Source: a virus
Length of the DNA stretch: 64,000 nt
Reading direction: 5' to 3' (one strand)
Virus record (IMG/VR): IMGVR_UViG_3300042562_002450
Location: 64,001 to 128,000 of that record
Shown here: one piece after another, positions 4,508-32,949 of the stretch
Layout: each line of letters starts with the position of its first letter
Numbering within the stretch: position 1 is the first letter of the stretch
The notes under the pieces: generated by a model
The model's database searches: none
What the model saw: only the letters and a program-made list of their open reading frames with translations
Told to the model about the DNA's origin: nothing
Made by a program: the position numbers and the translations under genes

Positions 4508-5977
4508 ATGACTTCAAGTAAAATAAAACACTACGTCCTAGACACCTGCGTTCTGCTTCATGATCCAGACTCTTTGCTTTCATTCCAAGAACATAATGTA
4601 TATCTACCATTAATAGTGATAGAAGAATTAGATAAGTTTAAGAAAGAAGAGAATGAGAAAGGTCGTAATTGCCGCTCTGCTACAAGAACAATTGACGAGC
4701 TAAGGATTCAAGGATCACTAACTGAGGGCGTTAAGCTTCCTGGTGGTGGAACTTTTAAAGTCCTTCCTGTCTACTCGGGTATGGGATCTCTTCCATTATC
4801 TTTTGATATTAATGACGATAAGATCCTTTCTACTACCGCTGTCTTGCAAACCCTACATAAGAATGATGAAGTTATTCTTGTCACTAATGACATTAATATG
4901 CGCGTTAGAGCAAATATATTTAAAATCCCAGTTGAGGTCTTTGGCAAGAAACTAAACAAGGACTTACTACATACAGGAATTAAAACTGTATATCTTGATC
5001 ATCCTGAGTATGCATCATTTAAACAACATGGACATGTAGCTCCATCAAGCTTAATTCATGTTCCTGGTAAAACTGTTTCTACAATACATAATAATGAAGA
5101 AACACTAATTCAACCTAACGATTATATTAAACTTGTAAATAAACAAGATGAGAATAAGTTTGCCTATGGAGCTTATGTCGCTTCTGTTAAATCTATTCAA
5201 AAGATTAGAGGTAAAAATGACCAAGTATTTGGTATCATTCCAAAAAATGATGAACAAGCTTGTGCGCTCGATGCACTTATGGATCCAGATATCAGCCTTG
5301 TTACTCTCATTGGCAAGGCAGGATCGGGGAAAACACTTATTGCTATCGCCGCAGCCCTTGAAGCTACATTAGAACATAAGATATATGATAAGATTTTAAT
5401 TGCTAGACCTGTTCAACCAATGGGTAAAGATATCGGGTACTTACCTGGAACCTTAGAAGAAAAGCTAGCTCCATGGATGCAACCAATTTTTGATAATCTT
5501 GAATTCCTTTTTTCTATTAAGAAAAAACATGTTGGTTCTTATGAACAAACAAAAAAACAAAAGATTAGACATACAAGAACTTCAAATTCAAGAAGAGGAG
5601 AGAAACCAGAAAAACCAGTTGAACAAGAATCTGCACCAAAGAAAAACTATGAATTCTTACTTGAAAGTAAAATGATTCAAGTTGAAGCTTTAACTTATAT
5701 TAGAGGACGATCAATTCCAAGACAGTTTATCATTATTGATGAGGCGCAAAACTTAACTCCTCATGAGATTAAAACAATTATAACTCGTGCTGGTGAAGGT
5801 ACCAAAATTGTTTTGACAGGTGATACTGAGCAGATTGATAATCCTTATTTAGACGAAGTAAGCAATGGACTAACTTATGCCGTGGAGCGTCTTAAGCATC
5901 TTGGTATGACTTCTCATATTACTTTATTTGAATGTGAAAGATCTGCCTTAGCTGAAGCTGGGACTAAGTTTTTATGA
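4508..5977 (+). CDS. phoH: PIN domain + PhoH-family ATPase (PhoH2/YlaK-like)
   Basis: N-terminal PIN (VLDTCVLLHDP, EELDKFK, DDKIL, VTNDINMR). C-terminal PhoH (GKAGSGKT, GYLPGTLEEK, YIRGRS, IIDEAQN, GDTEQID). Confidence 0.92.
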   Translation: MTSSKIKHYVLDTCVLLHDPDSLLSFQEHNVYLPLIVIEELDKFKKEENEKGRNCRSATRTIDELRIQGSLTEGVKLPGGGTFKVLPVYSGMGSLPLSFDINDDKILSTTAVLQTLHKNDEVILVTNDINMRVRANIFKIPVEVFGKKLNKDLLHTGIKTVYLDHPEYASFKQHGHVAPSSLIHVPGKTVSTIHNNEETLIQPNDYIKLVNKQDENKFAYGAYVASVKSIQKIRGKNDQVFGIIPKNDEQACALDALMDPDISLVTLIGKAGSGKTLIAIAAALEATLEHKIYDKILIARPVQPMGKDIGYLPGTLEEKLAPWMQPIFDNLEFLFSIKKKHVGSYEQTKKQKIRHTRTSNSRRGEKPEKPVEQESAPKKNYEFLLESKMIQVEALTYIRGRSIPRQFIIIDEAQNLTPHEIKTIITRAGEGTKIVLTGDTEQIDNPYLDEVSNGLTYAVERLKHLGMTSHITLFECERSALAEAGTKFL

Positions 5978-8927: not shown

Positions 8928-11900
8928 ATGGCTAAAAAAATAGCAGATCTAATCAGAAAGACAACCCCACTAGAATCAGAAGATCTCTTTTTGGTTTCGA
9001 CCTCTGTTGGATCTAGATCAATAAAAGCTCTAGATATGACGGGCACACTTCAAGGTCCAGTTGGCTCACAAGGTCCAGCTGGTGAAGTTGGCTCACAAGG
9101 CATTCAAGGTATCCAGGGAGTCCAAGGAGATAAAGGTGATCAGGGTGAACAAGGCATCCAGGGTATTCAGGGTGAAACTGGAGTTCAAGGACCAGAAGGT
9201 CAAGTTGGTCCTCAGGGCATAGAAGGTCTTCAAGGTCCTGCAGGCGCTGATGGTGCCGATGGTTCTCAAGGTGAACAAGGAGTTCAGGGGATTCAGGGAG
9301 AAGCTGGACCACAAGGTGTTCAAGGTGTTGCTGGAGCTGATGGAACAACTGGCGCTCAAGGTGATCAAGGATTACAAGGTCAAGTCGGCTTAAAAGGTGA
9401 TCAGGGAGAAATCGGATCTCAAGGTACTCAAGGTATCCAAGGCGAAGTTGGCTCTCAAGGAATTCAGGGTATTCAAGGAGTTCAGGGAGATAAAGGCGAT
9501 AAGGGAGATCAAGGAATACAAGGTATTCAAGGACCACAAGGTATCCAAGGTATTCATGGTGAAACTGGTGCTCAAGGACCAGAGGGTCAAGTTGGACCTC
9601 AGGGTATCCAAGGAGAAGTTGGGCCACAAGGCGAACAAGGTTCTCAAGGGATTCAAGGAATCCAAGGAATCCAGGGAGAGATCGGATCTCAAGGTTTGAA
9701 AGGTGACCAAGGAGAAACTGGTTCACAAGGACTTCAAGGCGAGCAAGGCATCCAAGGTATTCAAGGAATACAAGGCGAACAAGGGATTGAAGGAATTCAA
9801 GGAATACAAGGCGAGCAAGGCTTAGTTGGTCTTCAAGGAATCCAAGGCGAAAAAGGAGACAAAGGCGATCAGGGAATTCAAGGGTTCACTGGTCAAGATG
9901 GTACATCTTTTTCAATTGCTAAAATTTACTCCTCTTTAGCTCAGCTTCAATCTGATTCTTTACCTGGAATACAGAGTGGAGAATTCGCAATAATTAGTAC
10001 ATTAGATGAAAATGATACAGACAATTCAAAACTATTTGTCTGGAATGGATCTCAATATAATTTTGTTACAGATTTAAGTGGAGCCGTTGGTATTCAAGGA
10101 CCTCAGGGAACTCAAGGAATTCAAGGCGAAAAAGGTAACAAAGGTGATCAAGGTGAGCAAGGACTAATCGGCTTGCAAGGAATACAAGGTACTCAAGGAA
10201 ACCAAGGTGAAATTGGTCCTCAAGGCTTAGAAGGTATTCAGGGAATACAAGGAATTCAAGGAGCAGAAGGTTCTCAAGGCTCTCAGGGCTTACAAGGATT
10301 ACAGGGAATTCAAGGAGAAGTTGGCTCACAAGGAGCTCAAGGTATCCAGGGTGAACAAGGTATCCAAGGCTCTCAAGGCGAAAAAGGTGATAAAGGCGAC
10401 CAAGGCGAAATTGGTCTTCAAGGACTTCAAGGAGTTCAAGGCGAAGTTGGAACTGAAGGATCCCAAGGGATTCAAGGTATTCAAGGAGAGCAAGGTCTTC
10501 AAGGAATAGAAGGTCCACAAGGTTTACAGGGAGAACAAGGTCTTCCAGGTGAAACTGGTCCTGAAGGTCTTATGGGTGAAGGTGGTCCTATGGGTGAAGC
10601 TGGACCTCAAGGAGCTCAAGGCATTCAAGGCAATACTGGTGATACAGGTATTGCAGGTGCTGGAGTAACCACATCTAATCTAGTTCAAGGAGAAACATTA
10701 AGCATAGGAAATCTTGCATATGTGTCATCCGGTACAGGTAACGATTCCACAAGAATCGCTGGTGCATTATATAAACTAGATTTATCAAACTCGGCTAGAA
10801 ATAAATTTGCTGGAATTGTTCTTAACTATGACAACACAAGTCCTCACTTTAGTGAGGATTTTTCTAGTGGAAACTTTACAAATAATGGCTGGACAGAAGT
10901 AAACGGGACTCAAGCAAACAAATGGCATGTAGGTTCTGCAACATTTAATTCATCTAGCTATTCCGCATACATATCTAGCAATGGTGGAGTTTCCAACACA
11001 TACAACACAGGTATTGCATCAGCTGTATATTTTTATAAAGATATATTCGTACTCAATTCTGCAAATCCTGTTCAGTTAAGATATTCCATAAGAGCAACGG
11101 GAGAGTATACCTCATTACCATATGACTACGGTATGATTCTAATAGACCCAAATTTAACAACCGTTCCAGTAGCAGGTACACCAATATTGTTAGCACCATC
11201 TGGGGGAACTAGAACCTTGCTTTCTCCCTCAACATCTTGGTCACAAAGAACAATTAGCGTAAACGCATATAAAAATACGACTATTCGTTTAATCTTTGGA
11301 TGGGTCAATGATCCTAGTCTCGGGGCAAATCCCCCAATTGCTATAGATGATATTAGAATAGAAGATATACCTACCGCAACCATACAAAGCTCTGGATTGT
11401 TCAGTCAAGCAACTGGTTTAGTAACTGGTAGTTATTACTATCCATCAGCTACTGCTGGGGCTTATTTAAACTCAGTACCTACATCTATTGCCTCCCCTAT
11501 TGGATTAGCTATATCTGCCACGGAGATGATAATAAATCCACCAGCAAATAATTCGCCATCCTTAGTACCTTCAGGCACAGTAATGGCTTATGCGCCGTCA
11601 TCCACGCCTACTGGATACTTACTTTGTACTGGTCAAGCCGTAAGTAGAGCAACTTACTATAGTCTATATTCAGCAATTGGTATTCAATATGGTCAGGGTG
11701 ATGGCAGTACAACTTTTAACGTACCAGACTACCAAGGTATGTTTTTAAGAGGACGAGTAACAACAGCAGCATCTGTTACTGGAACTGGAACACCCGCAAC
11801 TAACAATGCAACCTTTACTTCTCATGGTATCAACAGGAATGGATTTAAAGTTAGATTCACAAGTGTTGGGACCTTAACTGGCGTGGTTATTAATACTGAT

Positions 11901-12293
11901 TATTACGCTATAGTTGTTGATTCAAGCACATTAGCATTTGCAGCAACTTTAGCAAATGCTGTTGCGGCAACTCCAACTAAAATTATCTTAGGTGGGACAA
12001 ACAATGCTGTGATTGCTCAGTGGGAAGATCCAGATGCATCATTAAGATCAGTTTTTGCAACTGGCGCAAATGGCGGAATGTCAGCAGGATCTTTTCAAGC
12101 TGATGATTTTGCACTACATACTCATACTGCTGAAATTCCCGCAACTTCATACACCGCTGCTCTGGCTGGAGTATCTAATAGTGTTGGTGGAGCTAACCTA
12201 ACTGGAACTCAAGTATCGAACGTATTAGGAAGCACTGGTGGATATGAAACTCGCCCTAGAAACATATCTATAAACTATATTATTAAAACCTAG
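8928..12293 (+). CDS. Collagen-like tail fibre with tail-collar domain
   Basis: Two Gly-X-Y blocks. Tail-collar motif VPSGTVMAY...GYLLCTGQAVSRATY...GDGSTTFNVPDYQGMFLRG. Typical fibre end ETRPRNISINYIIK. Confidence 0.9.
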   Translation: MAKKIADLIRKTTPLESEDLFLVSTSVGSRSIKALDMTGTLQGPVGSQGPAGEVGSQGIQGIQGVQGDKGDQGEQGIQGIQGETGVQGPEGQVGPQGIEGLQGPAGADGADGSQGEQGVQGIQGEAGPQGVQGVAGADGTTGAQGDQGLQGQVGLKGDQGEIGSQGTQGIQGEVGSQGIQGIQGVQGDKGDKGDQGIQGIQGPQGIQGIHGETGAQGPEGQVGPQGIQGEVGPQGEQGSQGIQGIQGIQGEIGSQGLKGDQGETGSQGLQGEQGIQGIQGIQGEQGIEGIQGIQGEQGLVGLQGIQGEKGDKGDQGIQGFTGQDGTSFSIAKIYSSLAQLQSDSLPGIQSGEFAIISTLDENDTDNSKLFVWNGSQYNFVTDLSGAVGIQGPQGTQGIQGEKGNKGDQGEQGLIGLQGIQGTQGNQGEIGPQGLEGIQGIQGIQGAEGSQGSQGLQGLQGIQGEVGSQGAQGIQGEQGIQGSQGEKGDKGDQGEIGLQGLQGVQGEVGTEGSQGIQGIQGEQGLQGIEGPQGLQGEQGLPGETGPEGLMGEGGPMGEAGPQGAQGIQGNTGDTGIAGAGVTTSNLVQGETLSIGNLAYVSSGTGNDSTRIAGALYKLDLSNSARNKFAGIVLNYDNTSPHFSEDFSSGNFTNNGWTEVNGTQANKWHVGSATFNSSSYSAYISSNGGVSNTYNTGIASAVYFYKDIFVLNSANPVQLRYSIRATGEYTSLPYDYGMILIDPNLTTVPVAGTPILLAPSGGTRTLLSPSTSWSQRTISVNAYKNTTIRLIFGWVNDPSLGANPPIAIDDIRIEDIPTATIQSSGLFSQATGLVTGSYYYPSATAGAYLNSVPTSIASPIGLAISATEMIINPPANNSPSLVPSGTVMAYAPSSTPTGYLLCTGQAVSRATYYSLYSAIGIQYGQGDGSTTFNVPDYQGMFLRGRVTTAASVTGTGTPATNNATFTSHGINRNGFKVRFTSVGTLTGVVINTDYYAIVVDSSTLAFAATLANAVAATPTKIILGGTNNAVIAQWEDPDASLRSVFATGANGGMSAGSFQADDFALHTHTAEIPATSYTAALAGVSNSVGGANLTGTQVSNVLGSTGGYETRPRNISINYIIKT
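9054..10655 (+). repeat. Collagen Gly-X-Y repeats (~94 triplets at 9054-9899, ~64 at 10080-10655)
   Basis: GGN-NNN-CAR periodicity; the two blocks are separated by a ~60 aa globular insert. Confidence 0.95.
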
Positions 12294-18438: not shown

Positions 18439-19485
18439 ATGATAAAACCAGTTGGCCTAGATGTTGGTACTCATATGTTAATTGCTTCTGAAGCTGATGC
18501 TTCTGGAGAAGTAACCTATAAAGAACAAGTTGATGCATTTTTTGTAATGGAATCAACAGATGAAGCAAAAAACATGCTAGACACACTCTCTGTCCCTTAC
18601 TCTGAAAAGAATGGAAAGACATATGTACTAGGTGAAGAAGCTAGAAAATTTGCAAATATGTTTAAGCAAGAGACTCGCCGCCCAATGCAAACGGGATGTC
18701 TTAATAAAAAAGACATTGAAGCACTTGGAATGCTTAACGCACTACTTTCTAATCTGCTAGAAAATGGCAATGGTTCCCCTATCGTCTATTCAGTCACATC
18801 TCAGCCATTAGGTAGTGAGATGAGCTTTGACTATCACAGGGCTCAAGTAGAGTCTCTATTAAAAGGAATGGGATATGAACCTAAGCCTATTCAAGAGGCT
18901 AGGGCAATTGCTCTCGCTGAGTTGGCCGCTGATCGCTTTACTGGTCTTGCTATCTCTTGTGGATCTGGCACTACCACTGTTTGGCTTGGTTTGTTGGGAA
19001 TGGATAATCCAAATTTTCAGTTTTCCATTGATCGTGGTGGTGATTGGATTGACACTAATGCTGCTGAGAATTTTGCCGGATTGACAAGAACTAAAGTTCA
19101 GACAGTAAAAGAGCGTGGCATTAAAATTAAAGAATATGAAAATGTTGAGACAGACCATCTTTCTGGCCATGAGCTTACTGAAGCTAGAGCTAAGCAAGCA
19201 CTATCTATTTACTATAGAGAGTATATCCGAGCTGTAGTTAAAGGTATTAAATATAAACTCGATAAAGAACAGCTACCTGAGTTTGATGGACCAATTCCAA
19301 TTGTTATTGCAGGTGGAACTAGTTCTCCTTCTGACTTTGTAGAAGTCTTCAAAGAAGAATGGGACAAAGCAAAGACTGGGCTAGATATCTCTGAAATCAG
19401 AAGAGCTAATGATCAATTCCGAGCTGTGTCTAAAGGTTGTTTAATTGCTGCTCAGCTTGAAGCAAAAAAGATGCTTAAGAAATAA
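18439..19485 (+). CDS. Actin-fold ATPase (MreB/MamK/ParM superfamily)
   Basis: Phosphate-1 VGLDVGT, connect-1 IQEARA, phosphate-2 ISCGSGTT, GGDWID, and adenosine motif IVIAGGTS; 348 aa. Confidence 0.85.
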   Translation: MIKPVGLDVGTHMLIASEADASGEVTYKEQVDAFFVMESTDEAKNMLDTLSVPYSEKNGKTYVLGEEARKFANMFKQETRRPMQTGCLNKKDIEALGMLNALLSNLLENGNGSPIVYSVTSQPLGSEMSFDYHRAQVESLLKGMGYEPKPIQEARAIALAELAADRFTGLAISCGSGTTTVWLGLLGMDNPNFQFSIDRGGDWIDTNAAENFAGLTRTKVQTVKERGIKIKEYENVETDHLSGHELTEARAKQALSIYYREYIRAVVKGIKYKLDKEQLPEFDGPIPIVIAGGTSSPSDFVEVFKEEWDKAKTGLDISEIRRANDQFRAVSKGCLIAAQLEAKKMLKK

Positions 19486-20633: not shown

Positions 20634-21692
20634 ATGATTATCTCAGATAGCATCAATATATACTTAAAGACCACAGAGACATGTAACTTGAATTGTGATC
20701 ATTGTTTTACCTCTGGAAGCAAAGGTAGGAAGATTTTTTTTAATCCAGAGAAAACATTTCTTTTTCTAGATAAGCTTTTTAGTCATCAGAAATACAAGCA
20801 TAAAAAAGTTATTCTTCATGGTGGAGAGCCGATGCTTGCACCTGCCTCTGATATTAGAAAGATACATAAGTTAATAAAAGATAAGTATCCTGAAACAGAA
20901 TTTAGTCTACAGACAAATCTAGTATATAAGTTAAACGAAGAGCGGCAATCCTTAATTGATGATCTTTTTCTTGAAAAAGGAATGGGAACATCTTGGGATT
21001 ACAAGATGAGATTTGCTTCTTATCAACAGCAGCTTCAGTGGGAAGATAATGTTCGAGCTCTACTAGCCAAAGGTCATTACCTTTCTGTTATGGTATCTTT
21101 AAACAAAGACTTACTTGATAACTTTGAGCCTGTAGATATCATTCAGTACTTTATTGATCTTGGGATTCAGCATGTTCTTTTTGAACGCATAACCTCTAAT
21201 GGTAACGCTCTACTTAATCCTAACATTCAGCCTCAGAATAAAGATCTAGATGCTTGGCTTCTAAAGATGTATGAACAGACAATAGAATATAAGCTCTATG
21301 ATAAAATCCATAATATGTTTCTTGATGAAATAGCTACGACTTATGTTAATAGGATCCATGCTGGAAACAGATGTAGAAACTGTGAACAAAGCCTAGTTAC
21401 CATTAATGCTGATGGTAGTCTTTCTGGATGTCCTAATAGTGCTGCTAGCGAATACTGGGGAAATATTGAATGGTCGATCCAAGAAAATCTTTCCTCTAAA
21501 AAAAGATTGAAGACAATGGCTTGTGAGCTTAAGCGAAATGATAACTGCCTAACTTGTCCTGTGAATAGTATCTGCAATGGTGATTGTCATAGACTCCCCT
21601 GGCAAGGTGATATCTGCGCGGCTCCCAAAAGCCTAATGAAGATGATGAAAGAACAAAATAAGATTGAAGATTACAGAAAGTTAATGTTATGA
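20634..21692 (+). CDS. Radical SAM/SPASM enzyme (rSAM-1)
   Basis: CNLNCDHC, LHGGEP, QTNL. SPASM Cys set CRNC...INADGSLSGCP...CLTCPVNSICNGDC...C. Confidence 0.92.
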   Translation: MIISDSINIYLKTTETCNLNCDHCFTSGSKGRKIFFNPEKTFLFLDKLFSHQKYKHKKVILHGGEPMLAPASDIRKIHKLIKDKYPETEFSLQTNLVYKLNEERQSLIDDLFLEKGMGTSWDYKMRFASYQQQLQWEDNVRALLAKGHYLSVMVSLNKDLLDNFEPVDIIQYFIDLGIQHVLFERITSNGNALLNPNIQPQNKDLDAWLLKMYEQTIEYKLYDKIHNMFLDEIATTYVNRIHAGNRCRNCEQSLVTINADGSLSGCPNSAASEYWGNIEWSIQENLSSKKRLKTMACELKRNDNCLTCPVNSICNGDCHRLPWQGDICAAPKSLMKMMKEQNKIEDYRKLML

Positions 21693-22144
21693 ATTGGAAA
21701 ATGAGATCTAAGATATATCACATGATGACTCCTGAGCCAGGAGACAATCTTGAGAAAGAAACCATTGTTGAAGAGTGGGACAAAAAAAGTATTATAAAAA
21801 GAGCAATCGAATATCCAACTTTTCAAACTAAAGAGTTATATTATCCAGCGAAGTCATATGCAATTGCTACATTGTATGCTATTCTTTTGACTGAAAATTT
21901 TGGTGGCGAACCTCTTGATTATTTAAAAGATCCAGAATTACTTGCAGGAAATGATCCATATTTCAAACCTTACGATAGCTCTAATAAAGATATTTATTCA
22001 ATAATTTGGAGCCATATTTTTCTAGCATTGGAAGATGGTTCAGAAAAAACTTCTGAAAATTTTAATAAATCTGTACAATATTTCTACGAGGAATTTTTAC
22101 TTGCTGAAAATACAAAAGTCTACTTGCCTCCTGACGAAAGATGA
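21689..22144 (+). CDS. Hypothetical protein coupled to rSAM-1
   Basis: 151 aa; ATGA-type overlap with the rSAM-1 stop; contains YPAKSYAIA...DPELLAGNDPYFKPY. Confidence 0.8.
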   Translation: MNWKMRSKIYHMMTPEPGDNLEKETIVEEWDKKSIIKRAIEYPTFQTKELYYPAKSYAIATLYAILLTENFGGEPLDYLKDPELLAGNDPYFKPYDSSNKDIYSIIWSHIFLALEDGSEKTSENFNKSVQYFYEEFLLAENTKVYLPPDER

Positions 22145-22634
22145 AATCAATAGTCTTATCTATGACTATGATCTATATCTATCTAAGAGCTTTTACATAA
22201 TCAATAAAGAACGGAAAGAATACAATGAAGATAATCATTCTCCAGATTTTATGTCTCATATACAAAAACTTGAAAAAGCATCCGGTGAAGGCTGCACTAT
22301 CATTGTTAAGAATATGGAAAGATATAACAGCCAAATACAAGAAACGGCAGAAGAGCTAGCACCAGGAACAGACGTTCATCTTTACTTAGTATTCGCTGAA
22401 GAAAGTGGAGATAGTTTTAATTGGCATAGAGATGATAAACCAGTTTGGATAAAAATGATCTATGGTGAGAAATTTTTTTCAATTAGATCAAGAGCAAAAG
22501 AAACTGTTTTCATAGATTCCTATAAAGTAAAAGAAAATGGATACTTATATATTGGATTAAGAGAGCATAGAGCTGAACCAATGGGACCATCTGCTATGTT
22601 AAGCTTTGGCTTGCCCAATCAAGAAGATCTCTAA
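22035..22634 (+). CDS. Cupin/JmjC-like oxygenase (start uncertain)
   Basis: DVHLY...GDSFNWHRDDKPVWIKMIYGEKFF resembles the JmjC/Cupin_4 HxD core; distal His in REHRAEP. Confidence 0.7.
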   Translation: MVQKKLLKILINLYNISTRNFYLLKIQKSTCLLTKDEINSLIYDYDLYLSKSFYIINKERKEYNEDNHSPDFMSHIQKLEKASGEGCTIIVKNMERYNSQIQETAEELAPGTDVHLYLVFAEESGDSFNWHRDDKPVWIKMIYGEKFFSIRSRAKETVFIDSYKVKENGYLYIGLREHRAEPMGPSAMLSFGLPNQEDL

Positions 22635-23532
22635 AACCACTACATGATTTTTCAATTGATTTAACATCGCGATAATGTTCTGTTAAGCATCGTCCCAAGT
22701 AAGGACATGCTGAACATATCGGATTTGATTTAACCTTAGTCTTTTCTAATCTAGCCCATAACAAGTATTCGTTAAAGCTATCCATCTCAAAAAAGTACTC
22801 ATTTTGTTCCAGATCAAACTCGAGAACGCCAAACTTTCCATTGGGAGTAATATAAACATGGCTATCACTATAAGCAGAATATAAACCACTGAGACTATCC
22901 TTGATCCTGTTTTTATTTATAAATGTAAAGTTTTTACGAATAGGAGAGATTAACCATTGCTTAACAAATTCTTCATACTCCTTATCAGTTACAGGTAAGG
23001 TATTTGCTTGGTTAGATGAGTATGGCTTTATCTCAACTGAAACTACATTTTGATATGTATTAAGTATACCGATCATCCTGTTAATGTCTAATTTCAACAA
23101 GTTAGGTGATGCCAACATTAGTATGGCAATTGGTTTCGATATCTTAGCCATGTTACTAAGTACCAACTCATGCTTCTCTCTGGCTTCAAAATCTAAGCTA
23201 ACAGAAAGATCTACATAGTCATGTAAGAAATATGAATTTATTTTAGAAAGATTTGTGATAACACTTATGCTTGGTTTCGAATAAACATTTAAAATTTCAT
23301 CTAATTTTTCCAAATAAGTAGGAGAAAGCAATCCTACTTCTCCACCATACAGATCTACGTGCTCTATGTAATAGCCATGGCTTCTTATCTCTTCAACCAT
23401 TGCAACAAGCCTTGATGGATCTAGTTTCTTTTGATCAGCTAATTGTTCTGGTCTAAGATAACAAAACTCACATCTAAAGTTACAAAGATATGTTGGATTT
23501 AAAGATATTGTTAATGGCTTAGCAGAGTCCAT
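22594..23532 (-). CDS. Radical SAM enzyme with C-terminal Cys cluster (rSAM-2)
   Basis: CNFRCEFC, LYGGE, ITNL; C-terminal CSACPYLGRC...C. Confidence 0.9.
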   Translation of the reverse strand: MDSAKPLTISLNPTYLCNFRCEFCYLRPEQLADQKKLDPSRLVAMVEEIRSHGYYIEHVDLYGGEVGLLSPTYLEKLDEILNVYSKPSISVITNLSKINSYFLHDYVDLSVSLDFEAREKHELVLSNMAKISKPIAILMLASPNLLKLDINRMIGILNTYQNVVSVEIKPYSSNQANTLPVTDKEYEEFVKQWLISPIRKNFTFINKNRIKDSLSGLYSAYSDSHVYITPNGKFGVLEFDLEQNEYFFEMDSFNEYLLWARLEKTKVKSNPICSACPYLGRCLTEHYRDVKSIEKSCSGFRDLLDWASQSLT

Positions 23533-24538
23533 GTTCTATTGCTCTCTTTCTAAACTCTTTCATTTTGACACAGCTTTCTTCGACAAGATTGTGCCTCTTT
23601 AGATCTTGAACTGTTTTATAGCATCCATTACATATAATAAAGTTTGGACAAGAAAGACATTCTTCTTTTTGATACTGAATGTTATGATCTGACTGTAGTG
23701 GCTTAAAGAATTCTCCAGCCATCTCTTTTTCAAAATCAATAGGATATTCCTGATCATCTCCCAATGATCCACATGATCCATACTCATATCCACTTTCGGA
23801 AACAGGCTGCAGATTTCTTATTCCCTCATCGCATTTTCTATTCTGAGGACATGTTGTAAATTCAGAGCCTTTGAGTCTCATAAGCATTTGTTTGGTAGAG
23901 TATTCCCATTCAGATAATCCAGCCTCGTATACGTTCATGTATATCTCATACATGTAACCAATAGGGAAAGGTCTCCCTTCTCTACCTGATGCCATTGCAT
24001 AATTCATCTTGCATTCAGCGCCGATATGTTTCGCAAGCCTTACATTGTTTAGTGCAAGATGCTTGTTATCTTCCGTAATTACAGAAATGAAATGTGGAAC
24101 ATATCCAAAGTCACCTTTGAATTTGTCTATAACTTTTAAAAATATTTCCTCAGTAAAGACTTGTCCTGGTCGTATTTGTCGGCTATCGCCATAATGAAAT
24201 GAAGTACATATTTGAACCTGAGATTGACTAAAAAGTTCTCTCCATTTGTCTGGATGAAGCCAATAGTCCCATAAGTTAGTAGTAAAACTGATGACACAAT
24301 CTGTCATCTTTCTTTCTTCTAGCATCTTAATTATTTGCCAGTAATACTCAGGAGATACCATAAGAGGATCTCCTCCATTTACTATTATTGTTTTAGTTTC
24401 TGGGAATCTATCAAGAAATTGACGGACCTTGTCTATATCAAGATCATCGATCGGTTTATTAGATTTTGCAATCTCTGTTGAGCTACAGAACGTACATGAG
24501 AAATTACACCTTTGCGTTGGCTTAATGATGAGATCCAT
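23519..24538 (-). CDS. Radical SAM/SPASM enzyme (rSAM-3)
   Basis: CNFSCTFC, VNGGDP, FTTNL; CPQNRKC...GSCGS...CLSCPNFIICNGC...C. Confidence 0.92.
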   Translation of the reverse strand: MDLIIKPTQRCNFSCTFCSSTEIAKSNKPIDDLDIDKVRQFLDRFPETKTIIVNGGDPLMVSPEYYWQIIKMLEERKMTDCVISFTTNLWDYWLHPDKWRELFSQSQVQICTSFHYGDSRQIRPGQVFTEEIFLKVIDKFKGDFGYVPHFISVITEDNKHLALNNVRLAKHIGAECKMNYAMASGREGRPFPIGYMYEIYMNVYEAGLSEWEYSTKQMLMRLKGSEFTTCPQNRKCDEGIRNLQPVSESGYEYGSCGSLGDDQEYPIDFEKEMAGEFFKPLQSDHNIQYQKEECLSCPNFIICNGCYKTVQDLKRHNLVEESCVKMKEFRKRAIEHGLC

Positions 24539-24630: not shown

Positions 24631-25365
24631 ATGGCAATAGTAAAAGATGAAGGTATCACAAGAGAAGATATCATCAATAAATTTAACTTGAGAGTAAGAG
24701 ACTGGGTAGCTTCAAATGTTACTCTACTTGGAAATAGAACTTATACAGCAAGTCATTCTGTATGGAATGGAACTCCAGGTTGGAAAAATGGTGGTGACAC
24801 TTCAGGTCCTGCGTACAGAGTGACTAGAACATTAAACTCGACAGCAGCAGCACTTGCTCTTAATTCAACAAATGCTGGTGGTGCAACAGACTCAATATTG
24901 AATACAGACCGTATACTTTCTGAAGTAATGCTTACTAGTGATTTTACTCCTGACGTAGGTGCAGCAAATAGCACTGGGCATGTAATTAAAATATTAAGAG
25001 ACATGATGGCTTCATACTCAAGAGTTCACCAGATTCGTATTCAGAATATAGGAAATCTTACATTCTCAATTTCTGGAGTAGCAGGAACTATGCTGTCTGA
25101 TACTGGAGTTGCAATTGGAACGACAACCAGACCAACAGCTATTGCTTTGATGAATACAGATATGGATTTATATATAAATACTAATAATTTAAAAGCTGGT
25201 GGCACTCTTGATGCAGATAAGTTCAACAACTTTCTTGAAACATGTAGATCTATATGGCTTAATCGCTGTGTAAACTCAGGAGTGCTAGAAACATTTAACT
25301 TTAGCTATTGCCACTCATCATGTCATTCAAATGTTACTTGTTATAACTCAAGAGGCCGAAGGTAA
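24631..25365 (+). CDS. Putative modification substrate A (precursor-like protein with C-terminal Cys/His/Ser core)
   Basis: 244 aa; paralogous to the next gene; ends SYCHSSCHSNVTCYNSRGRR; lies amid rSAM genes. Confidence 0.8.
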   Translation: MAIVKDEGITREDIINKFNLRVRDWVASNVTLLGNRTYTASHSVWNGTPGWKNGGDTSGPAYRVTRTLNSTAAALALNSTNAGGATDSILNTDRILSEVMLTSDFTPDVGAANSTGHVIKILRDMMASYSRVHQIRIQNIGNLTFSISGVAGTMLSDTGVAIGTTTRPTAIALMNTDMDLYINTNNLKAGGTLDADKFNNFLETCRSIWLNRCVNSGVLETFNFSYCHSSCHSNVTCYNSRGRR

Positions 25366-25984
25366 AGTTATGTCTATTATTTTAAATAATACAATTACTA
25401 GAGAAAATATTATTGCAAAATTTAATGAAAGAGTTAGAGACTGGGTAGTCTCTAATACTAACTTCTTAAATGCGACTCCAGTATGGAATCAAACTGTTGG
25501 TTACATAACAGCAAACAGCTCAGCTTTTGGTGGAGGTATTAACCGGATAACAGAAGTTTCGGCTACTCCAGTTTCTATTCAGGTCACAGATTTAATATCT
25601 AACATCGGTGCTGATAATTCAGCTGCAGGAAAAATCGTAAAAGTATTAAAAGATTTCTTAATCTTATATGCAAATAATCATAGAATAACATTAAACAATA
25701 CTGGGAATCTTGCTCCAGCAAATTATGTTGGAGTCGCAAGACTTAATGGAACGCCACTTGCAACACAAACTGCAATAGGAACTGATGTTGACGCTGCAGC
25801 AATTGCAAGTAATGTTTCTAATGGTCAACTTATAACTGCATTAAATCTTAATAGTTTTATTGAGTCATGTAGAACAATTTGGACTAATAGAGCATTCACT
25901 CCAAGCTTAGAAACATTTAATTATAGTTATTGTCATTCATCGTGCCACTCAAATGTTACTTGTTACAATTCAAGAGGTCGAAGG
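25303..25984 (+). repeat. Duplicated 60-nt core-coding segment (25303-25362 and 25925-25984)
   Basis: Same 20 residues encoded with 9 synonymous codon differences and no amino-acid change. Confidence 0.95.
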
Positions 25985-25987
25985 TAA
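25370..25987 (+). CDS. Putative modification substrate B (paralog of A)
   Basis: In-frame ATG 4 nt after the stop of A. MSIILNNTITRENIIAKFNERVRDWV aligns with A's ITREDIINKFNLRVRDWV. Identical C-terminal 20 aa. Confidence 0.8.
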   Translation: MSIILNNTITRENIIAKFNERVRDWVVSNTNFLNATPVWNQTVGYITANSSAFGGGINRITEVSATPVSIQVTDLISNIGADNSAAGKIVKVLKDFLILYANNHRITLNNTGNLAPANYVGVARLNGTPLATQTAIGTDVDAAAIASNVSNGQLITALNLNSFIESCRTIWTNRAFTPSLETFNYSYCHSSCHSNVTCYNSRGRR

Positions 25988-25995
25988 GGTTATCT

Positions 25996-27132
25996 ATGGA
26001 GAAAACCTTAATAAACAAAGATGGCCCAAAGAGTATTAATGATTTCTTGAAGATCAAAGAGTCATATAAAACAAAAGACTCAATGCTTCTCTCTATATTT
26101 AAAGAGAAGACTCCACCTTATACTGAGATTGAAATTTCTTTCTTTGAACTATGCAATCTACATTGTCGTTTTTGCTGGCAAGATAATTATAATCCCACTG
26201 GAATTAATTCAATTAAAGAAAAAGCAGAAATTGTAATCGACTATCTAGATAAGCAAAAGGAAAGGCTACAGCCAAATATTCAAGTACACATGCTTGGTGG
26301 TGAGCTCTTTGAAGATAGCAATGATTACTATGATCAGTATTATTCTTTTATTAGTTCTATTTCTGAATATGTAAAAGCTAAAATGCCTGAAAAACATTTA
26401 CGCTTTGTCTTTTTAACTAATATGAATTTTCAAAAAGATGAGACCAAAATGAAGCTGGAGCATTTCCTCTTAAAGCTTCAACTTAAAGAAATTAAGTTTA
26501 TTCTAACTACATCTTGGGATCCAACAGGTCGCCCACTCAAAGGTGATATTGAGACTCAGTTCCATAAGAACATTACTTACTTTAAGGAGTATCTAAGTGA
26601 GGTAACTTTCGTATTAACGAAATCAACAATAAACCGACTTTTACAAGATAAAAATGATTACCTTGATCTATTAGTAAATCAAGGCTTTAACATCGATTAT
26701 GATTACTATATGCCCACAACCTGGGTTGATCAAATGATGCCTAGTGATAGAGATCTGCTTAATGCCTTTAGGTATCTAATTTATAAATATCCAAATATCC
26801 GTAAGTTAAAAGCATGGACAAGCAAGGAACCTGGAGAAGGAACTATCAGTTGTGCTAGCCTTAATAAGATAACAATACTACCAGATGGTACTATTACTAA
26901 CTGTAGACATCTTAAATATGATCAAAAAGATTTTGAAAGCAAGGTGCAAAATGAATCAAATAGTGATATGATTCTAACCTATCTATCAAAGCGCGAGTGT
27001 TTAAACTGCCCTTACTTTAAGGAGTGTCCTCTAAGTTGTTTCCTTATGGCTGATCATAAGAAATTTAATGGAAACTTAGAGCTTTCTGAGTGTCTTTATA
27101 GTATCCTTTTTAAGGAAAAATATAAGAGGTAA
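25996..27132 (+). CDS. Radical SAM/SPASM-like enzyme (rSAM-4)
   Basis: CNLHCRFC, MLGGE, FLTN; SCAS...ILPDGTITNC...CLNCPYFKECPLSC...C. Start moved to in-frame ATG 25996, after the stop of substrate B. Confidence 0.9.
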   Translation: MEKTLINKDGPKSINDFLKIKESYKTKDSMLLSIFKEKTPPYTEIEISFFELCNLHCRFCWQDNYNPTGINSIKEKAEIVIDYLDKQKERLQPNIQVHMLGGELFEDSNDYYDQYYSFISSISEYVKAKMPEKHLRFVFLTNMNFQKDETKMKLEHFLLKLQLKEIKFILTTSWDPTGRPLKGDIETQFHKNITYFKEYLSEVTFVLTKSTINRLLQDKNDYLDLLVNQGFNIDYDYYMPTTWVDQMMPSDRDLLNAFRYLIYKYPNIRKLKAWTSKEPGEGTISCASLNKITILPDGTITNCRHLKYDQKDFESKVQNESNSDMILTYLSKRECLNCPYFKECPLSCFLMADHKKFNGNLELSECLYSILFKEKYKR

Positions 27133-27134
27133 AT

Positions 27135-27866
27135 ATGAATACTAAAACTTTAATTAAAACATTGCCTTTATCAACTGATGATTTGATTTCTCTTTTTGAT
27201 AATCCAGGCCAGATCTTAGATATTGATTATTCTAAATCATCTTTAAAGGATGATGCATTTTTTGCATATGTTTCTAATGTTAAGATTCAATGTCGTCTTC
27301 ATGGTTATGAGGATCTCTCCTATAATGAAAAAGAAAGATTATTAAATTCATTTATTAATTCAAAATATACAATGGAAATTGAAAATCTAAAAGAAACTAT
27401 TGTTGGTATTCTACTTAATGCAGATCCTAAAAGTATTTCTTTTTTCAAAGAAGATGAAATTGAAAAATACAAAGTAGAAAATAGAGATAGATTAAATCAG
27501 CTAGTTCAATTTTTTAATTCAATGCTAATAATGATTCCATCTATATCTAGTGATTTTAAGAAACTCTTTATAGACACAGGGATAGAGGATGGCTCAATAG
27601 CAGAGATTGATGGAACTGATTTTATAACTCCAAATATTTATAACTTAACTTTTTATCCAGGTTTTATTGATCTCTTTATTGGCAATCAAGAAGAAGAACA
27701 TTCTTTAGTCTTTTACAAAGGTGTTATCGATAGCTACCAATATAAAAATAAAAGCTTTTTCTCTCTTCTTACTGATAATGAAACAGCACCAAATCTAATT
27801 ACAATTTTTAATTATTTCTTTATTGAAAATGAAGAAAGTGAAAAAGAACTAAAAGAAGCCATCTAA
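27135..27866 (+). CDS. Hypothetical protein in the rSAM operon
   Basis: 243 aa acidic ORF, 2 nt after the rSAM-4 stop. Confidence 0.8.
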   Translation: MNTKTLIKTLPLSTDDLISLFDNPGQILDIDYSKSSLKDDAFFAYVSNVKIQCRLHGYEDLSYNEKERLLNSFINSKYTMEIENLKETIVGILLNADPKSISFFKEDEIEKYKVENRDRLNQLVQFFNSMLIMIPSISSDFKKLFIDTGIEDGSIAEIDGTDFITPNIYNLTFYPGFIDLFIGNQEEEHSLVFYKGVIDSYQYKNKSFFSLLTDNETAPNLITIFNYFFIENEESEKELKEAI

Positions 27867-27880
27867 CAAAGGTAAAAAAT

Positions 27881-29011
27881 ATGATCCACTTCCTAGGTAA
27901 AGTATTCCTTGAATATACTGAAACCAAACCACAACTTGACCATATGACTGTAAAGCCATCTCAATATATAAGAATTGTAGATAGAGGGCTTGCTAACATT
28001 ATGGATAGTTACTCAATCAATAAGCACATTGCAAACTTTAAAGATGTAGAAGAATGTCTTGAGAAATTCGTAACATTTGATAATTTTATTTCTTTCCTTA
28101 ATGAGAAAGAAAAAGAAGAAAGAGTTATTATTTACTGTGATGAAGTCTCTATGCCAAAACTTCTTTGTAGTCTTTGGAAGAGTATCTTCCCTGGCATAAC
28201 TAAAGAAATTGCATATAGTTTTTATGTCTCATATAAAGACAATGAATACTTCAGAAGAGATGACAGAAATGAGTATATTGAGATAGATATTAATAGTGCT
28301 AAAATAGAAAAGACAGCATTCCTTACTCGTTACTGGGACTTAGATAGAGAACTTTTTTATTCTTATTTTGATAATGCAGAATCTTTTAGTCTTGAGAATA
28401 AAGAAACAGCAATTGGCCTTGAGTTTGCCTTCACCAAGTTATTGCTAGACAATGAAAGATTTAAGCCTGTTTTTTCTGAGAAGTTAGAATATCTATATAA
28501 AAAGAATATCTCTAAAGAAATCATTTTCATGATCTCAACTATAAGAGAACATTGTCTTATTCTTCTAAGAAAAAAAGGAATAATGAATGAGATCATGCTT
28601 AATGACACATCGGTAATCGACTATCTTAAAGGACAGGAAAGATATAATATTCTTTTTGATGGGAACGTTAAGCATGCACCAGAGACCTATGATTATCTTA
28701 GATCTAAAGGAAACATTTTAAAACTTATTTCAGATCTTACATTTGACTGTTCAGTTATCCACAAAGAGATAAATCCAAGTTTTGTTTCTTTTGAAGAATT
28801 TAAACAAGAAAATCCAATTTGTTCATATATTCTTGAACAAAAGAAAGAACCTATTCTTGAAGACTTAATGGATGCTAATATTCTTAAGTTCTCTAATTAT
28901 CATTTCATTAGAAGTTATGTACAAACTGGTATTTTTAATTACTTTCTTCTTCAGTCTATTTGCATTACAAATGAAGCCAACCCTTCAGCACTAGATGCTC
29001 TTAAAGTCTAA
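27881..29011 (+). CDS. Hypothetical protein in the rSAM operon
   Basis: 376 aa ORF; contains RVIIYCDE; no recognised domain. Confidence 0.8.
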   Translation: MIHFLGKVFLEYTETKPQLDHMTVKPSQYIRIVDRGLANIMDSYSINKHIANFKDVEECLEKFVTFDNFISFLNEKEKEERVIIYCDEVSMPKLLCSLWKSIFPGITKEIAYSFYVSYKDNEYFRRDDRNEYIEIDINSAKIEKTAFLTRYWDLDRELFYSYFDNAESFSLENKETAIGLEFAFTKLLLDNERFKPVFSEKLEYLYKKNISKEIIFMISTIREHCLILLRKKGIMNEIMLNDTSVIDYLKGQERYNILFDGNVKHAPETYDYLRSKGNILKLISDLTFDCSVIHKEINPSFVSFEEFKQENPICSYILEQKKEPILEDLMDANILKFSNYHFIRSYVQTGIFNYFLLQSICITNEANPSALDALKV

Positions 29012-29468: not shown

Positions 29469-30298
29469 ACATAACTGCTAAGCAGGATAACTTCTTGATC
29501 GGCTTTTAGCTTCTCGACTTTATGAACAAATCTTGGATTATAAGTATTTAAGAATAAGACCATTCCATCTTTAATTTCAATTTTAGTTTCTTTAATTATA
29601 TTTCCACTTCTGCAAATACCTTTCTGGTCTAACTCTATTGTTAAGAGATCTCTTTCTCCAATAACTAGTTCTCTTCCTTCTATCTTTTTAGAGTTAGAGA
29701 AGTAATTGAATATCATATAATAGACCCCAGGTGTGTAATCCATATGGAAACTATACGGTCCTCTTGTGTCTAATTCATTTTCTTTATATCTGTACTTCAG
29801 AGCATCTGTAGATATTATTCTCCTATCTAATCTTAATGGTCCAGAATACTTAGGGACATTAAGAACTATATAGTTTAACTCTTCAGCATTTGAATTCAAT
29901 ATACTTAATGGTAGGTTGTCATCTTTAAAAAAGACAATGCTGTTTATCTTTTCTCTTACCTTTTCATGCACATCATAGTGAGCTACAAAGTAGCCATCAT
30001 GTTGCATGTCGCGCCAAAAGTAATCAAAACTATTTTTCTTATTACCAATGAAAGAGATTGGGATAAAGCTTCCAGCTTTATACTCTGATGAGCTATCTTT
30101 ACTATAGATTTCGTCTATATAGTATCCATCCTCTGTGACCTTAATGAATTCAAATTCAAGATTAGGTAGGAATACCATCTCTCCATAAAGATCCGTAAAA
30201 TAGGAATAAAGCCATGACTTTTTAAATTCATCAGGAGTTCCAAACCAGCCCTTACCTTTAGTAAAGAAATTAATAGTTTCTGGTGTCATTAGTCCCAC
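29459..30298 (-). CDS. Divergent 2OG-Fe(II) oxygenase-like protein
   Basis: FHMD...EGRELVIG...NPRFVHKV. Confidence 0.65.
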   Translation of the reverse strand: MGLMTPETINFFTKGKGWFGTPDEFKKSWLYSYFTDLYGEMVFLPNLEFEFIKVTEDGYYIDEIYSKDSSSEYKAGSFIPISFIGNKKNSFDYFWRDMQHDGYFVAHYDVHEKVREKINSIVFFKDDNLPLSILNSNAEELNYIVLNVPKYSGPLRLDRRIISTDALKYRYKENELDTRGPYSFHMDYTPGVYYMIFNYFSNSKKIEGRELVIGERDLLTIELDQKGICRSGNIIKETKIEIKDGMVLFLNTYNPRFVHKVEKLKADQEVILLSSYVHT

Positions 30299-30827
30299 TT
30301 TTTATAAAAAAGTTAACTCTGTATGTATATCTATCTACTGGTGTTGGTAGTACTGCATGTGGATGTGTATAGAAGGTTGGCATAATAATCATTCTTCCGG
30401 CTCTTGGCTTTATAACTAAAGATTGTTTTGGAAAGACAATTTCTCCTCCTTCAATATCTTGGAGGTAAAGCAAGACTATAAAATTTCTCCTTAGTCCACC
30501 TTCAGAGATCTCATTATCGTAATGCATAGTCAAACCAGTGCCAGTCTTTAGTTTTAATAGCATACTATTTTCCAAATAATACTCAGCTTGAACCGTACCT
30601 ATTGATTGGAGATATTTGTCTACTTCCTTCTGGGCTAGTTCTCTAACATTAGAGTCAAAAGCTTTTAAGCTTTGAATCTTATCTAGGTTCATGAACTCAT
30701 GCTGCTCTCCATCGAAATTGATCTCTTTTGTTTTTCTTTGAAGATTTTCTTTCTCTAATGAAAAAATAAACTCTTCACAGGATTCTTTAGATATTAAATT
30801 ATCAATTTGGCGTATGAAGGTTTCCAT
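30270..30827 (-). CDS. 2OG-Fe(II) oxygenase (prolyl-4-hydroxylase-like)
   Basis: MHYD, LLYLQDIEGGEIVFP, IKPRAGRMIIMP, THPHAVLP...R: canonical HxD...H...R. Confidence 0.88.
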   Translation of the reverse strand: METFIRQIDNLISKESCEEFIFSLEKENLQRKTKEINFDGEQHEFMNLDKIQSLKAFDSNVRELAQKEVDKYLQSIGTVQAEYYLENSMLLKLKTGTGLTMHYDNEISEGGLRRNFIVLLYLQDIEGGEIVFPKQSLVIKPRAGRMIIMPTFYTHPHAVLPTPVDRYTYRVNFFIKSGTNDTRNY

Positions 30828-32409: not shown

Positions 32410-32949
32410 ATGATTACCAAACATGGCACGATACTATATGGACATAAAGTCTTTTCTGATACTTTTTGCTGGAAAGCAATTGACTCGATGACTTCTCAAA
32501 ATAAATTAAATAGAGGATATGGAGCAGAATGTTTTGATCTTGATATAACTCAATCCATGATAAGTGAGATAAAGAATGTCTTTACTGAAGCAAGGAAATC
32601 TATTGAGATACCTCCATTAATTATAAGAAATAGAGGAGAGGTTCTCAAGTATACTCCAGGTATGAAGCTAGATACTCATTTTGATATTCCATACTGCAAA
32701 GATGACTTCTATCCATTCGTAACTGTGATTAACTTAAACGAAGGATATGGAGGAGGTCTTTACTTTGACTGTGCTGATTTAGAAATAGAAGGAATGGGAT
32801 CTATCGTAATGACCCCATCTTCTTTTATGTCAACTCACTCAGTAAGAGAAATAACTGGAAAAGATAGATACTCTTTGCTATTGGATATTACATATCCCGA
32901 AATGCTTGAAAAGTGTTCTGGAAAAAAAGAAGATTGGATATTTATCTAG
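32410..32949 (+). CDS. 2OG-Fe(II) oxygenase (prolyl-4-hydroxylase-like)
   Basis: KYTPGMKLDTHFD, INLNEGYGGGLYF, STHSVREITGKDRYSL. Confidence 0.85.
   Translation: MITKHGTILYGHKVFSDTFCWKAIDSMTSQNKLNRGYGAECFDLDITQSMISEIKNVFTEARKSIEIPPLIIRNRGEVLKYTPGMKLDTHFDIPYCKDDFYPFVTVINLNEGYGGGLYFDCADLEIEGMGSIVMTPSSFMSTHSVREITGKDRYSLLLDITYPEMLEKCSGKKEDWIFI

Follow-up and report, generated by a model that had tools for sequence, protein, structure and literature searches.

A phage protein family with a constrained His-x-Ser tail, encoded among radical SAM enzymes and a candidate for cross-linking before virion assembly

Two adjacent genes of an uncultured phage encode proteins that end in the same 20 residues, and this shared C-terminal tail is, on balance, likely to be the substrate of radical S-adenosylmethionine (rSAM) enzymes encoded around it, carried on a protein of the virus particle. 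The genes lie in a 64,000-nucleotide stretch (hereafter the window) spanning bases 64001-128000 of the 198,626-bp IMG/VR virus record IMGVR_UViG_3300042562_002450, which has an estimated completeness of 89%; the GC content of the window is 34%. To our knowledge, hardly any rSAM maturases with SPASM domains are known outside bacterial peptide natural products and a few enzyme subunits. The genes described here belong to a conserved module of 8-12 genes that seems dedicated to the tail of one virion protein; it recurs in hundreds of phages that have not been cultured and in jumbo phages in culture whose hosts are Agrobacterium, Sinorhizobium, Ralstonia, Burkholderia and Pseudomonas. If this is correct, it would be the first radical post-translational cross-linking of a virus structural protein within the reach of our literature searches, and would add four new enzyme families and a new fold. 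It would also offer a tractable system for His-x-Ser modification chemistry, which is still unsolved in bacterial HXS defence, and would account for the multiple rSAM genes of many large phages, a feature noted without explanation for marine T4-like genomes (PMC5332604).

A duplicated protein and the grammar of its tail

The two genes and their tails are as follows.

24631..25365, + strand: paralog A, the long form, an open reading frame (ORF) of 244 amino acids with a globular body and a C-terminal core, in the long-form clade of the family
25303..25362, + strand: core tail of paralog A, SYCHSSCHSNVTCYNSRGRR, predicted to be disordered
25370..25987, + strand: paralog B, the short form, an ORF of 205 amino acids, grouping in the tree with short forms P0008 to P0011
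25925..25984, + strand: core tail of paralog B, the same peptide, also SYCHSSCHSNVTCYNSRGRR

The start of paralog B is most likely the ATG at 25370 (MSIIL...); an alternative ATG at 25331 would overlap the 3' end of the paralog A gene. A preliminary description of the region, made by a model from the letters alone, held that the two bodies align only in patches, but BLASTP aligns the proteins throughout, with 39% identity across their full length (E 1e-48) and an insertion of ~35 amino acids in paralog A. Its account of the tail was borne out, both in the ORFs and in the counts: the final 20 residues are identical and their codons differ by 9 synonymous and 0 non-synonymous changes. By Nei-Gojobori counting, the proportions of synonymous (pS) and non-synonymous (pN) differences are 0.69 and 0 in the tail compared with 0.72 and 0.39 in the body, synonymous sites being close to saturation, and 0 of 200,000 simulations in which the tail received 9 random substitutions left the peptide unchanged. 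An old duplication follows from these figures, with the tail kept by purifying selection on the peptide, as had been proposed, and not by recent copying of the DNA. A CH-x-x-CH coding pattern occurs at just 2 sites in the window, the two tails, where shuffled sequences lead one to expect 0.

At least two other phage contigs (L111, of 194,956 bp, and a contig of 10,508 bp) share the long-then-short tandem arrangement, and a maximum-likelihood tree unites the long forms in one clade (support 100/100) that lies within the short forms. Lake-water metagenomes from several studies contain near-identical copies; contigs from four lake metagenomes hold one variant, A>G at 25873, and population variation was uninformative. 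Tandem pairs of much shorter members (134-140 amino acids) in a Rhodobacteraceae metagenome-assembled genome (MAG; L095:7638-8473 and L103:6062-6879) are independent cases of side-by-side tail proteins. At the nucleotide level, the closing tail codons and stop, CGA AGG TAA, are the same in both copies (window 25354-25369 and 25976-25995) and form a Shine-Dalgarno-like GAAGGT 4-8 nt ahead of the next start codon, so the last tail codons may be constrained as nucleotides as well. Separately, N-x-S/T sequons stand at about twice their shuffled level in each paralog (9 versus ~4.9, P ~0.03 each), and one of them (NVT) falls within the invariant tail.

An AlphaFold2 model of paralog A, run with a 95-sequence alignment, shows the body as a confident, compact, globular alpha/beta domain (predicted local distance difference test score, pLDDT, 88.6; predicted template modelling score, pTM, 0.84), followed by a tail of ~20 residues that is predicted to be disordered and exposed (pLDDT ~52). 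The preliminary description had likened the body to segments of a virion fibre; the fibre-like form was rejected on this model, whereas the virion role found support in a cultured relative (see below). Searches of Pfam and NCBIfam identified no domain in the body. Foldseek returned no match in the PDB at E <= 0.001 (E > 0.6), a wide VIA fold search gave nothing convincing (best Z 4.9), and a search of BFVD returned only members of the family itself, including the protein of Agrobacterium phage Atu_ph07.

Neither the gene island (blastn) nor paralog A (tblastn) matched any of 50,697 phage records, and the family was reached instead through rSAM homologues and profile searches. A profile search of 1.84 billion representatives yielded 98 family proteins, counted as representatives at 50% identity; a matching protein of 2923 amino acids (P0058) was discarded as a false positive, being a bacterial Ig/cadherin repeat protein. 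One tail class alone accounts for at least 166 loci in IMG/VR scans, and, with all sources pooled, the family counts at least 192 distinct phage proteins (median length 194 amino acids). Among PHROG families, paralog A matches phrog_35144, of unknown function, at residues 189-244 only (E 4e-4), paralog B does not match it, and one IMG/VR member matches it over the tail only (E 2.7e-6).

Members share a layout of a body of ~190 amino acids, a disordered tail and an R-x-R-R C-terminus, with Arg at positions -1 and -4 in 192/192 members and at -2 in 191/192; the most frequent ending is SRGRR, the Ser of which is variable (163/192). The tail consists of 2-6, usually 3-4, units of the form [Cys]-(His, rarely Tyr or Phe)-x-(Ser/Asn), spaced 3 or 4 residues apart. 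Every member retains at least two His, and Ser or Asn stands two residues after the His, Phe or Tyr in 576 of the 624 units of the 192 tails (92%). The aromatic-X-X pattern suggested in the preliminary description gains weight from those relatives with tails of the form C-(H/F/Y x x)4-RGRR. The commonest class is (C-H-x-x)3, and the window tails belong to a class written CHSS-CHSN-VT-CYNS. Tails of a second class contain one Cys and, after it, exactly four 3-residue units (for example, HSN-HSN-HSS-HGS or HSN-FSQ-FGS-HGS); here the aromatic residue varies among His, Phe and Tyr while the 3-residue spacing remains strict. In the 95-sequence alignment the first Cys-His pair is invariant, and the first Cys is the only invariant one. 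L106, a close relative with the synteny of the window, has a single-Cys tail together with a larger rSAM set than the window, and since the second and third Cys are absent in such close relatives, only the first appears to be required. The three obligatory thioether donors of the preliminary description are therefore unlikely.

These patterns bear on whether the tail is modified at all. It could instead be an unmodified Cys/His motif that binds a metal (Zn, Fe, Ni or Cu) or forms disulfides for oligomerisation or virion anchoring, with the rSAM enzymes and oxygenases acting elsewhere. The richness of the tail in Cys and His, its invariant Cys-His pair and the two or more His of every member all suit such a role, but Phe, which is unable to ligate metals, stands in for His at the middle units, Cys 2 and 3 are dispensable, metal binding leaves the Ser or Asn two residues after the aromatic unexplained, and the adjacency to rS1 and p243 described below is near-universal. 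The tolerance of Phe and Tyr argues against simple metal ligation, and the swaps among His, Phe and Tyr at 3-residue spacing in the single-Cys class, as read from the sequences, would fit a carbon-carbon (C-C) cross-linking motif better. We consider an unmodified tail unlikely.

One match to the family lies in the assembly of a cultured isolate, the only such case: a 4.3-kb contig of Dysosmobacter segnis BX15 (L105:3-362) encodes a tail with six CH units (CHDS CHSN VV CHAS CHDS CHSA RGRR), followed by p243, rS4 and rS3 (defined below).

The radical SAM operon

Gene order was compared across 90 loci, comprising 88 from IMG/VR, that of Atu_ph07 and the window, with ORFs taken from each. The operon in the window contains the following genes around the two paralogs.

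20634..21692, + strand: rS1, an rSAM enzyme of SPASM type with CxxxCxxC and 8 conserved C-terminal Cys (Pfam, PHROG and NCBIfam matches)
21689..22144, + strand: p151, phrog_20737, a conserved operon member present in 59-60/90 loci
22035..22634, + strand: cupin/JmjC-like protein, a probable protein hydroxylase (phrog_8014; in 79/90 loci)
22594..23532, - strand: rS2, an rSAM enzyme, twitch-like, with 4 conserved C-terminal Cys
23519..24538, - strand: rS3, an rSAM enzyme, SPASM-like, with 9 conserved auxiliary Cys
25996..27132, + strand: rS4, an rSAM enzyme with the canonical 7-Cys SPASM motif
27135..27866, + strand: p243, phrog_20767, the near-universal neighbour of the tail gene (in 88/90 loci; AlphaFold2 pLDDT 84.3)
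27881..29011, + strand: p376, which has a positional counterpart of ~370 amino acids after p243 in 75 loci
30270..30827, - strand: 2-oxoglutarate (2OG)-Fe(II) oxygenase (PF13640, E 4.9e-11)
32410..32949, + strand: 2OG-Fe(II) oxygenase just below the Pfam cut-off (PF13640, E 2.8e-5, 25.4 bits versus 27)

The true start of the cupin/JmjC-like gene is probably downstream of 22144, and its orthologue in L014 matches both Cupin_2 and JmjC_2. Genes for rSAM enzymes adjoin the tail gene in 90/90 loci and all four orthologue types are present in 67/90, most of the remaining loci being truncated at contig ends. The genes usually run cupin, rS1, tail protein, p243, the ~370-amino-acid ORF, (2OG oxygenase), rS4, rS3, rS2, p151 and 2OG oxygenase, and within it the adjacency of rS1, tail protein and p243 is near-universal and ordered across very distant phages. 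The cluster Cys are fully conserved in 45 orthologues of each enzyme (8 auxiliary Cys in rS1, 9 in rS3, the 7-Cys SPASM motif of rS4 and 4 in rS2). The operon sits among tail and baseplate genes, and upstream of it lie genes for a giant DUF4815 protein and a tail-fibre-like protein. A genome collection yielded 13 loci only, nearly all of them on MAG contigs, and the module therefore appears to be phage-borne. Tail ORFs were recovered in 11 of these 13 loci by ORF calling and a tail-motif scan, and the operon was present in all 11. The link to rSAM neighbours drawn in the preliminary description thus held, as homologues do not commonly occur without them where the contig reaches.

That the rSAM and oxygenase genes modify DNA or nucleotides, for example by base hypermodification, with the tail protein as merely a linked structural gene, is very improbable. 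Phage rSAM enzymes act in thymidine hypermodification (PMC8989533), and a DHFR gene is present in some loci (RSL2 ORF073; L106), but SPASM and twitch domains with full sets of auxiliary Cys look like those of maturases acting on peptides or proteins, the operon has no conserved kinase, glycosylase or transferase that modifies nucleotides, and the tight, ordered rS1-tail-p243 linkage persists in very distant phages.

The model of p243, like that of the tail protein body, is confident, but Foldseek returned no match for it, a VIA search gave nothing convincing (best Z 4.6) and a protein atlas search gave no usable match. Weak partial-barrel rows in the VIA results include rSAM enzymes, but the hhalign probability of p243 against each rSAM profile was below 1%. 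A complex prediction of the tail protein with p243 scored 0.00 and bears neither way. A phmmer search of PDB sequences with rS1 gave 0 matches.

The enzyme set varies among loci. A gene for a B12-binding rSAM enzyme of ~560 amino acids, probably of the methyltransferase type, lies between the ~370-amino-acid ORF and rS4 in 38/90 loci (for example, L024:12348-14018) and is not found in the window. A fifth rSAM gene, a second copy of rS3 type, lies upstream of rS4 in L091 and L106, both of which have single-Cys (H-x-N/S)4 tails. Five of the 13 genome-collection matches lie on contigs binned as Bdellovibrionota MAGs (L094, L098, L099, L100 and L101), and L094 and L100 carry an extra rS1-like gene. 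The minimal system is at L107:6776-8999, where a tail with two CH units, ending YCHSSCHSSRSRR, is flanked by one rS2-type enzyme and p243; no further CxxxCxxC protein is encoded within this 18-kb locus, leaving rS2 as its sole rSAM enzyme. Read from gene content, this hints that rS2 and p243 could form the core maturation pair.

Cultured phages, virions and a proposed maturation pathway

The module also occurs in cultured phages. Atu_ph07 encodes, in order, a cupin (gp172), an rSAM enzyme (gp171), the tail protein (gp170, ending FCHSSCHASCHNSRSRR), gp169 and three further rSAM enzymes. The RSL2 group of phiKZ-like phages of Ralstonia and Burkholderia has the module as well, its ORF068 ending CHSSCHTSCHGSRGRR, and both Sinorhizobium phage Phosso and Pseudomonas phage pPa_SNUABM_DT01 encode rS1 homologues. 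In the literature on the cultured phages the rSAM and cupin genes figure as accessory genes of unknown role, and our literature searches found no description of the family or the operon.

Published proteomics place the Atu_ph07 orthologue in the particle. Table S5 of the Atu_ph07 paper lists gp170 among the virion proteins, with 8 unique peptides and 35% coverage, and its calculated mass equals the 31.89 kDa given there. The protein was detected in gel slices 1-9 with peak abundance in slice 1; elsewhere in that table, slices 6-8 are where proteins of 30-37 kDa are most abundant, while slice 1 contains proteins of 87-139 kDa. The orthologue thus belongs to the virion and migrates well above the size of its monomer. 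The rSAM enzymes and gp169 of Atu_ph07 are absent from the virion list.

This result also bears on the fate of the tail. In a classical pathway for a peptide made on the ribosome and modified after translation (a RiPP), the ~190-amino-acid body would act as a leader of unusual size, and the 16-20 modified residues of the tail would be cleaved and released as a bioactive peptide. A C-terminal core flanked by SPASM maturases is indeed the arrangement of RiPP clusters, but among the operon genes that can be assigned to a family none was identified as a protease or exporter, the body is a conserved and confidently folded domain, the genes lie inside a structural module, and the body of the Atu_ph07 orthologue is itself in virions. 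Release of the tail is accordingly a distinctly improbable outcome.

Maturation of a tail that stays on its protein could proceed as follows. The two genes form an old duplicated pair, long and short, within a widespread, unnamed phage protein family, in which the folded alpha/beta body (~190 amino acids) would present a flexible C-terminal core to four co-conserved rSAM enzymes, with p243 perhaps an accessory to the process. The enzymes may place C-C links on the aromatic-x-Ser/Asn units, in a triceptide-like or HxsA-like manner, the invariant Cys might be joined by a thioether, and the JmjC/cupin and 2OG oxygenases could add hydroxyl groups. The tail would then remain attached rather than being released, and, judging from the operon and its setting, it is probably cross-linked chemically before the protein joins the virus particle. 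After maturation the protein would enter the particle close to the tail or baseplate, and there a rigid, basic, protease-resistant knot could serve a structural or attachment role, possibly in high-mass assemblies that resist sodium dodecyl sulphate (SDS). The status of the tail as a substrate, the type of cross-link and its role in the particle are all matters that we infer.

A more far-reaching and rather unlikely version holds that the C-C or thioether links forged by the four enzymes, as a dedicated phage set, in a virion protein's basic His-x-Ser tail amount to a new radical-chemistry form of virion maturation. Subunits could thereby be joined covalently into assemblies that resist SDS, as a radical 'chainmail' or staple, or the tail could be a viral mirror image of HxsA that acts on DNA at ejection or entry or counters HXS-type defence.

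Several points weigh against cross-linking of the tail by the four enzymes. Its modification is deduced from gene neighbourhood alone, and a tail rich in Cys and His is able to bind metals or form disulfides with no enzyme involved. From their sequences, the chemistry of the four rSAM enzymes is unreadable by homology, since all four fall far below every curated family cut-off. L107 has one rSAM enzyme within 18 kb and four are therefore not always required. The virion location is shown for one distant orthologue only, gp170, and because no reductant appears in the published description of the Atu_ph07 sample buffer, the slice-1 signal could come from disulfide-linked or SDS-resistant oligomers; the unmodified disulfide motif considered above could likewise account for gp170 in the top slice under non-reducing conditions.

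Relation to known maturation systems and neighbouring genes

In outline the phage system resembles the triceptide and HXS systems and, on sequence comparison, it is a member of none of the groups compared, providing a new setting for rSAM maturation of a ribosomal polypeptide. The top NCBIfam matches of rS1 are to YhhB, the His-Asn-Arg triceptide synthase (60.7 bits versus a cut-off of 445), PapB (58.5 versus 340) and the anaerobic sulfatase-maturing enzyme anSME (57.4 versus 349). None of the cyclophane-synthase families (XyeB, GrrM/OscB, FxsB, YhhB and AmcB) was reached, scores other than that for YhhB being 18-42 bits against cut-offs of 310-450.

Triceptides carry links from an aromatic carbon to a C-beta, each a change of -2 Da, on omega-X-X motifs, including the His motifs HAA, HNR and HTK, and the enzyme HtkB tolerates a His-to-Phe change (PMC11499958). 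As in the triceptide systems of YhhB, HaaB, HtkB, XyeB, GrrM and FxsB, the phage tails repeat an aromatic-X-X unit, with His, Phe and Tyr exchanging for one another, and SPASM maturases are encoded alongside. In contrast to these systems, however, the phage core is fused to a folded protein of ~190 amino acids and is probably not released, Cys lies between the units in most members, the third position is nearly always Ser or Asn, and the enzymes, far below the family cut-offs, are encoded inside phage structural modules. A short leader and a released core, which mark triceptide precursors, are replaced by a folded body that, in the orthologue, is found in virions. Triceptide-like C-C chemistry on the tail, argued by analogy, is only a tentative proposal.

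In HXS defence, HxsA (214 amino acids, with five His-x-Ser repeats) is matured by the rSAM enzymes HxsB and HxsC together with HxsD, and its change amounts to +8 Da inside an SHRSS unit (PMC13128918). The phage system is similar in having a protein-sized substrate (HxsA is ~200 amino acids) with tandem His-x-Ser units in a basic context, several rSAM enzymes and a small accessory protein encoded alongside, and a product that remains part of a functional protein. It differs in being phage-encoded and virion-associated, whereas HxsA is a bacterial periplasmic effector, and in having its repeats at the extreme C-terminus, ending in R-x-R-R. The phage protein also lacks a peptidoglycan-binding domain and an N-terminal processing signal, there being no Pfam or NCBIfam domain in its body, and the phage operon contains JmjC and 2OG oxygenases. 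None of the four phage enzymes is an orthologue of HxsB or HxsC, scores reaching no more than 27 bits against cut-offs of 370 and 268: rS3 scores 27.3 bits against the HxsC model (cut-off 267.9) and 24.7 against HxsB (370), and rS2 scores lower. The HxsA models were the NCBIfam families that drew matches from the largest number of members, with ~10 of 95 hitting HxsA, A2, A3 or A4, but these matches are weak (best E 4.9e-4) and run through the repeat region only, and do not place the family within HxsA.

A precedent for a matured product that stays in place is QhpC, the gamma subunit of quinohemoprotein amine dehydrogenase, which is matured by the SPASM enzyme QhpD and remains a structural subunit, containing Cys-to-Asp/Glu thioethers and a Cys-tryptophylquinone. 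As proposed for the phage protein, an rSAM/SPASM enzyme there cross-links a polypeptide that remains in a larger assembly, although the two systems have no sequence relation (QhpD model 32 bits versus 453). Similarly, the targets of SCIFF, ranthipeptide and CXXX-repeat maturases have a Cys-rich C-terminal core and SPASM maturases, as do the phage proteins, in whose dominant class Cys recurs every four residues, and the phage enzymes give weak matches to the PapB, SCIFF and CXXX-repeat maturase models. However, only one Cys is invariant in the phage tails and whole single-Cys subfamilies are accompanied by the same enzyme set, while scores against the PapB and SCIFF maturase models (25 bits versus 425 for the latter) are far below cut-off, which sets the family apart from sactipeptides, ranthipeptides and SCIFF peptides alike. 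The S-R-G-R-R end resembles the sulfatase motif C/S-x-P/A-x-R; an anSME-type formylglycine there was set aside, as the Ser is not universal, no sulfatase domain is present and rS1 falls well short of the anSME cut-off.

Elsewhere in the window, a 348-amino-acid protein (18439-19485, + strand) matches Volactin, an actin-like Pfam family (PF25216, E 1.4e-67), and a Volactin gene lies at the matching position in L106 and L111, followed by a conserved ORF of 149 amino acids. Further upstream are a PhoH-like gene (4508-5977) and a gene for a 1121-amino-acid protein (8928-12293, + strand) with strong collagen-like tail-fibre matches (phrog_819, E 3.5e-122).

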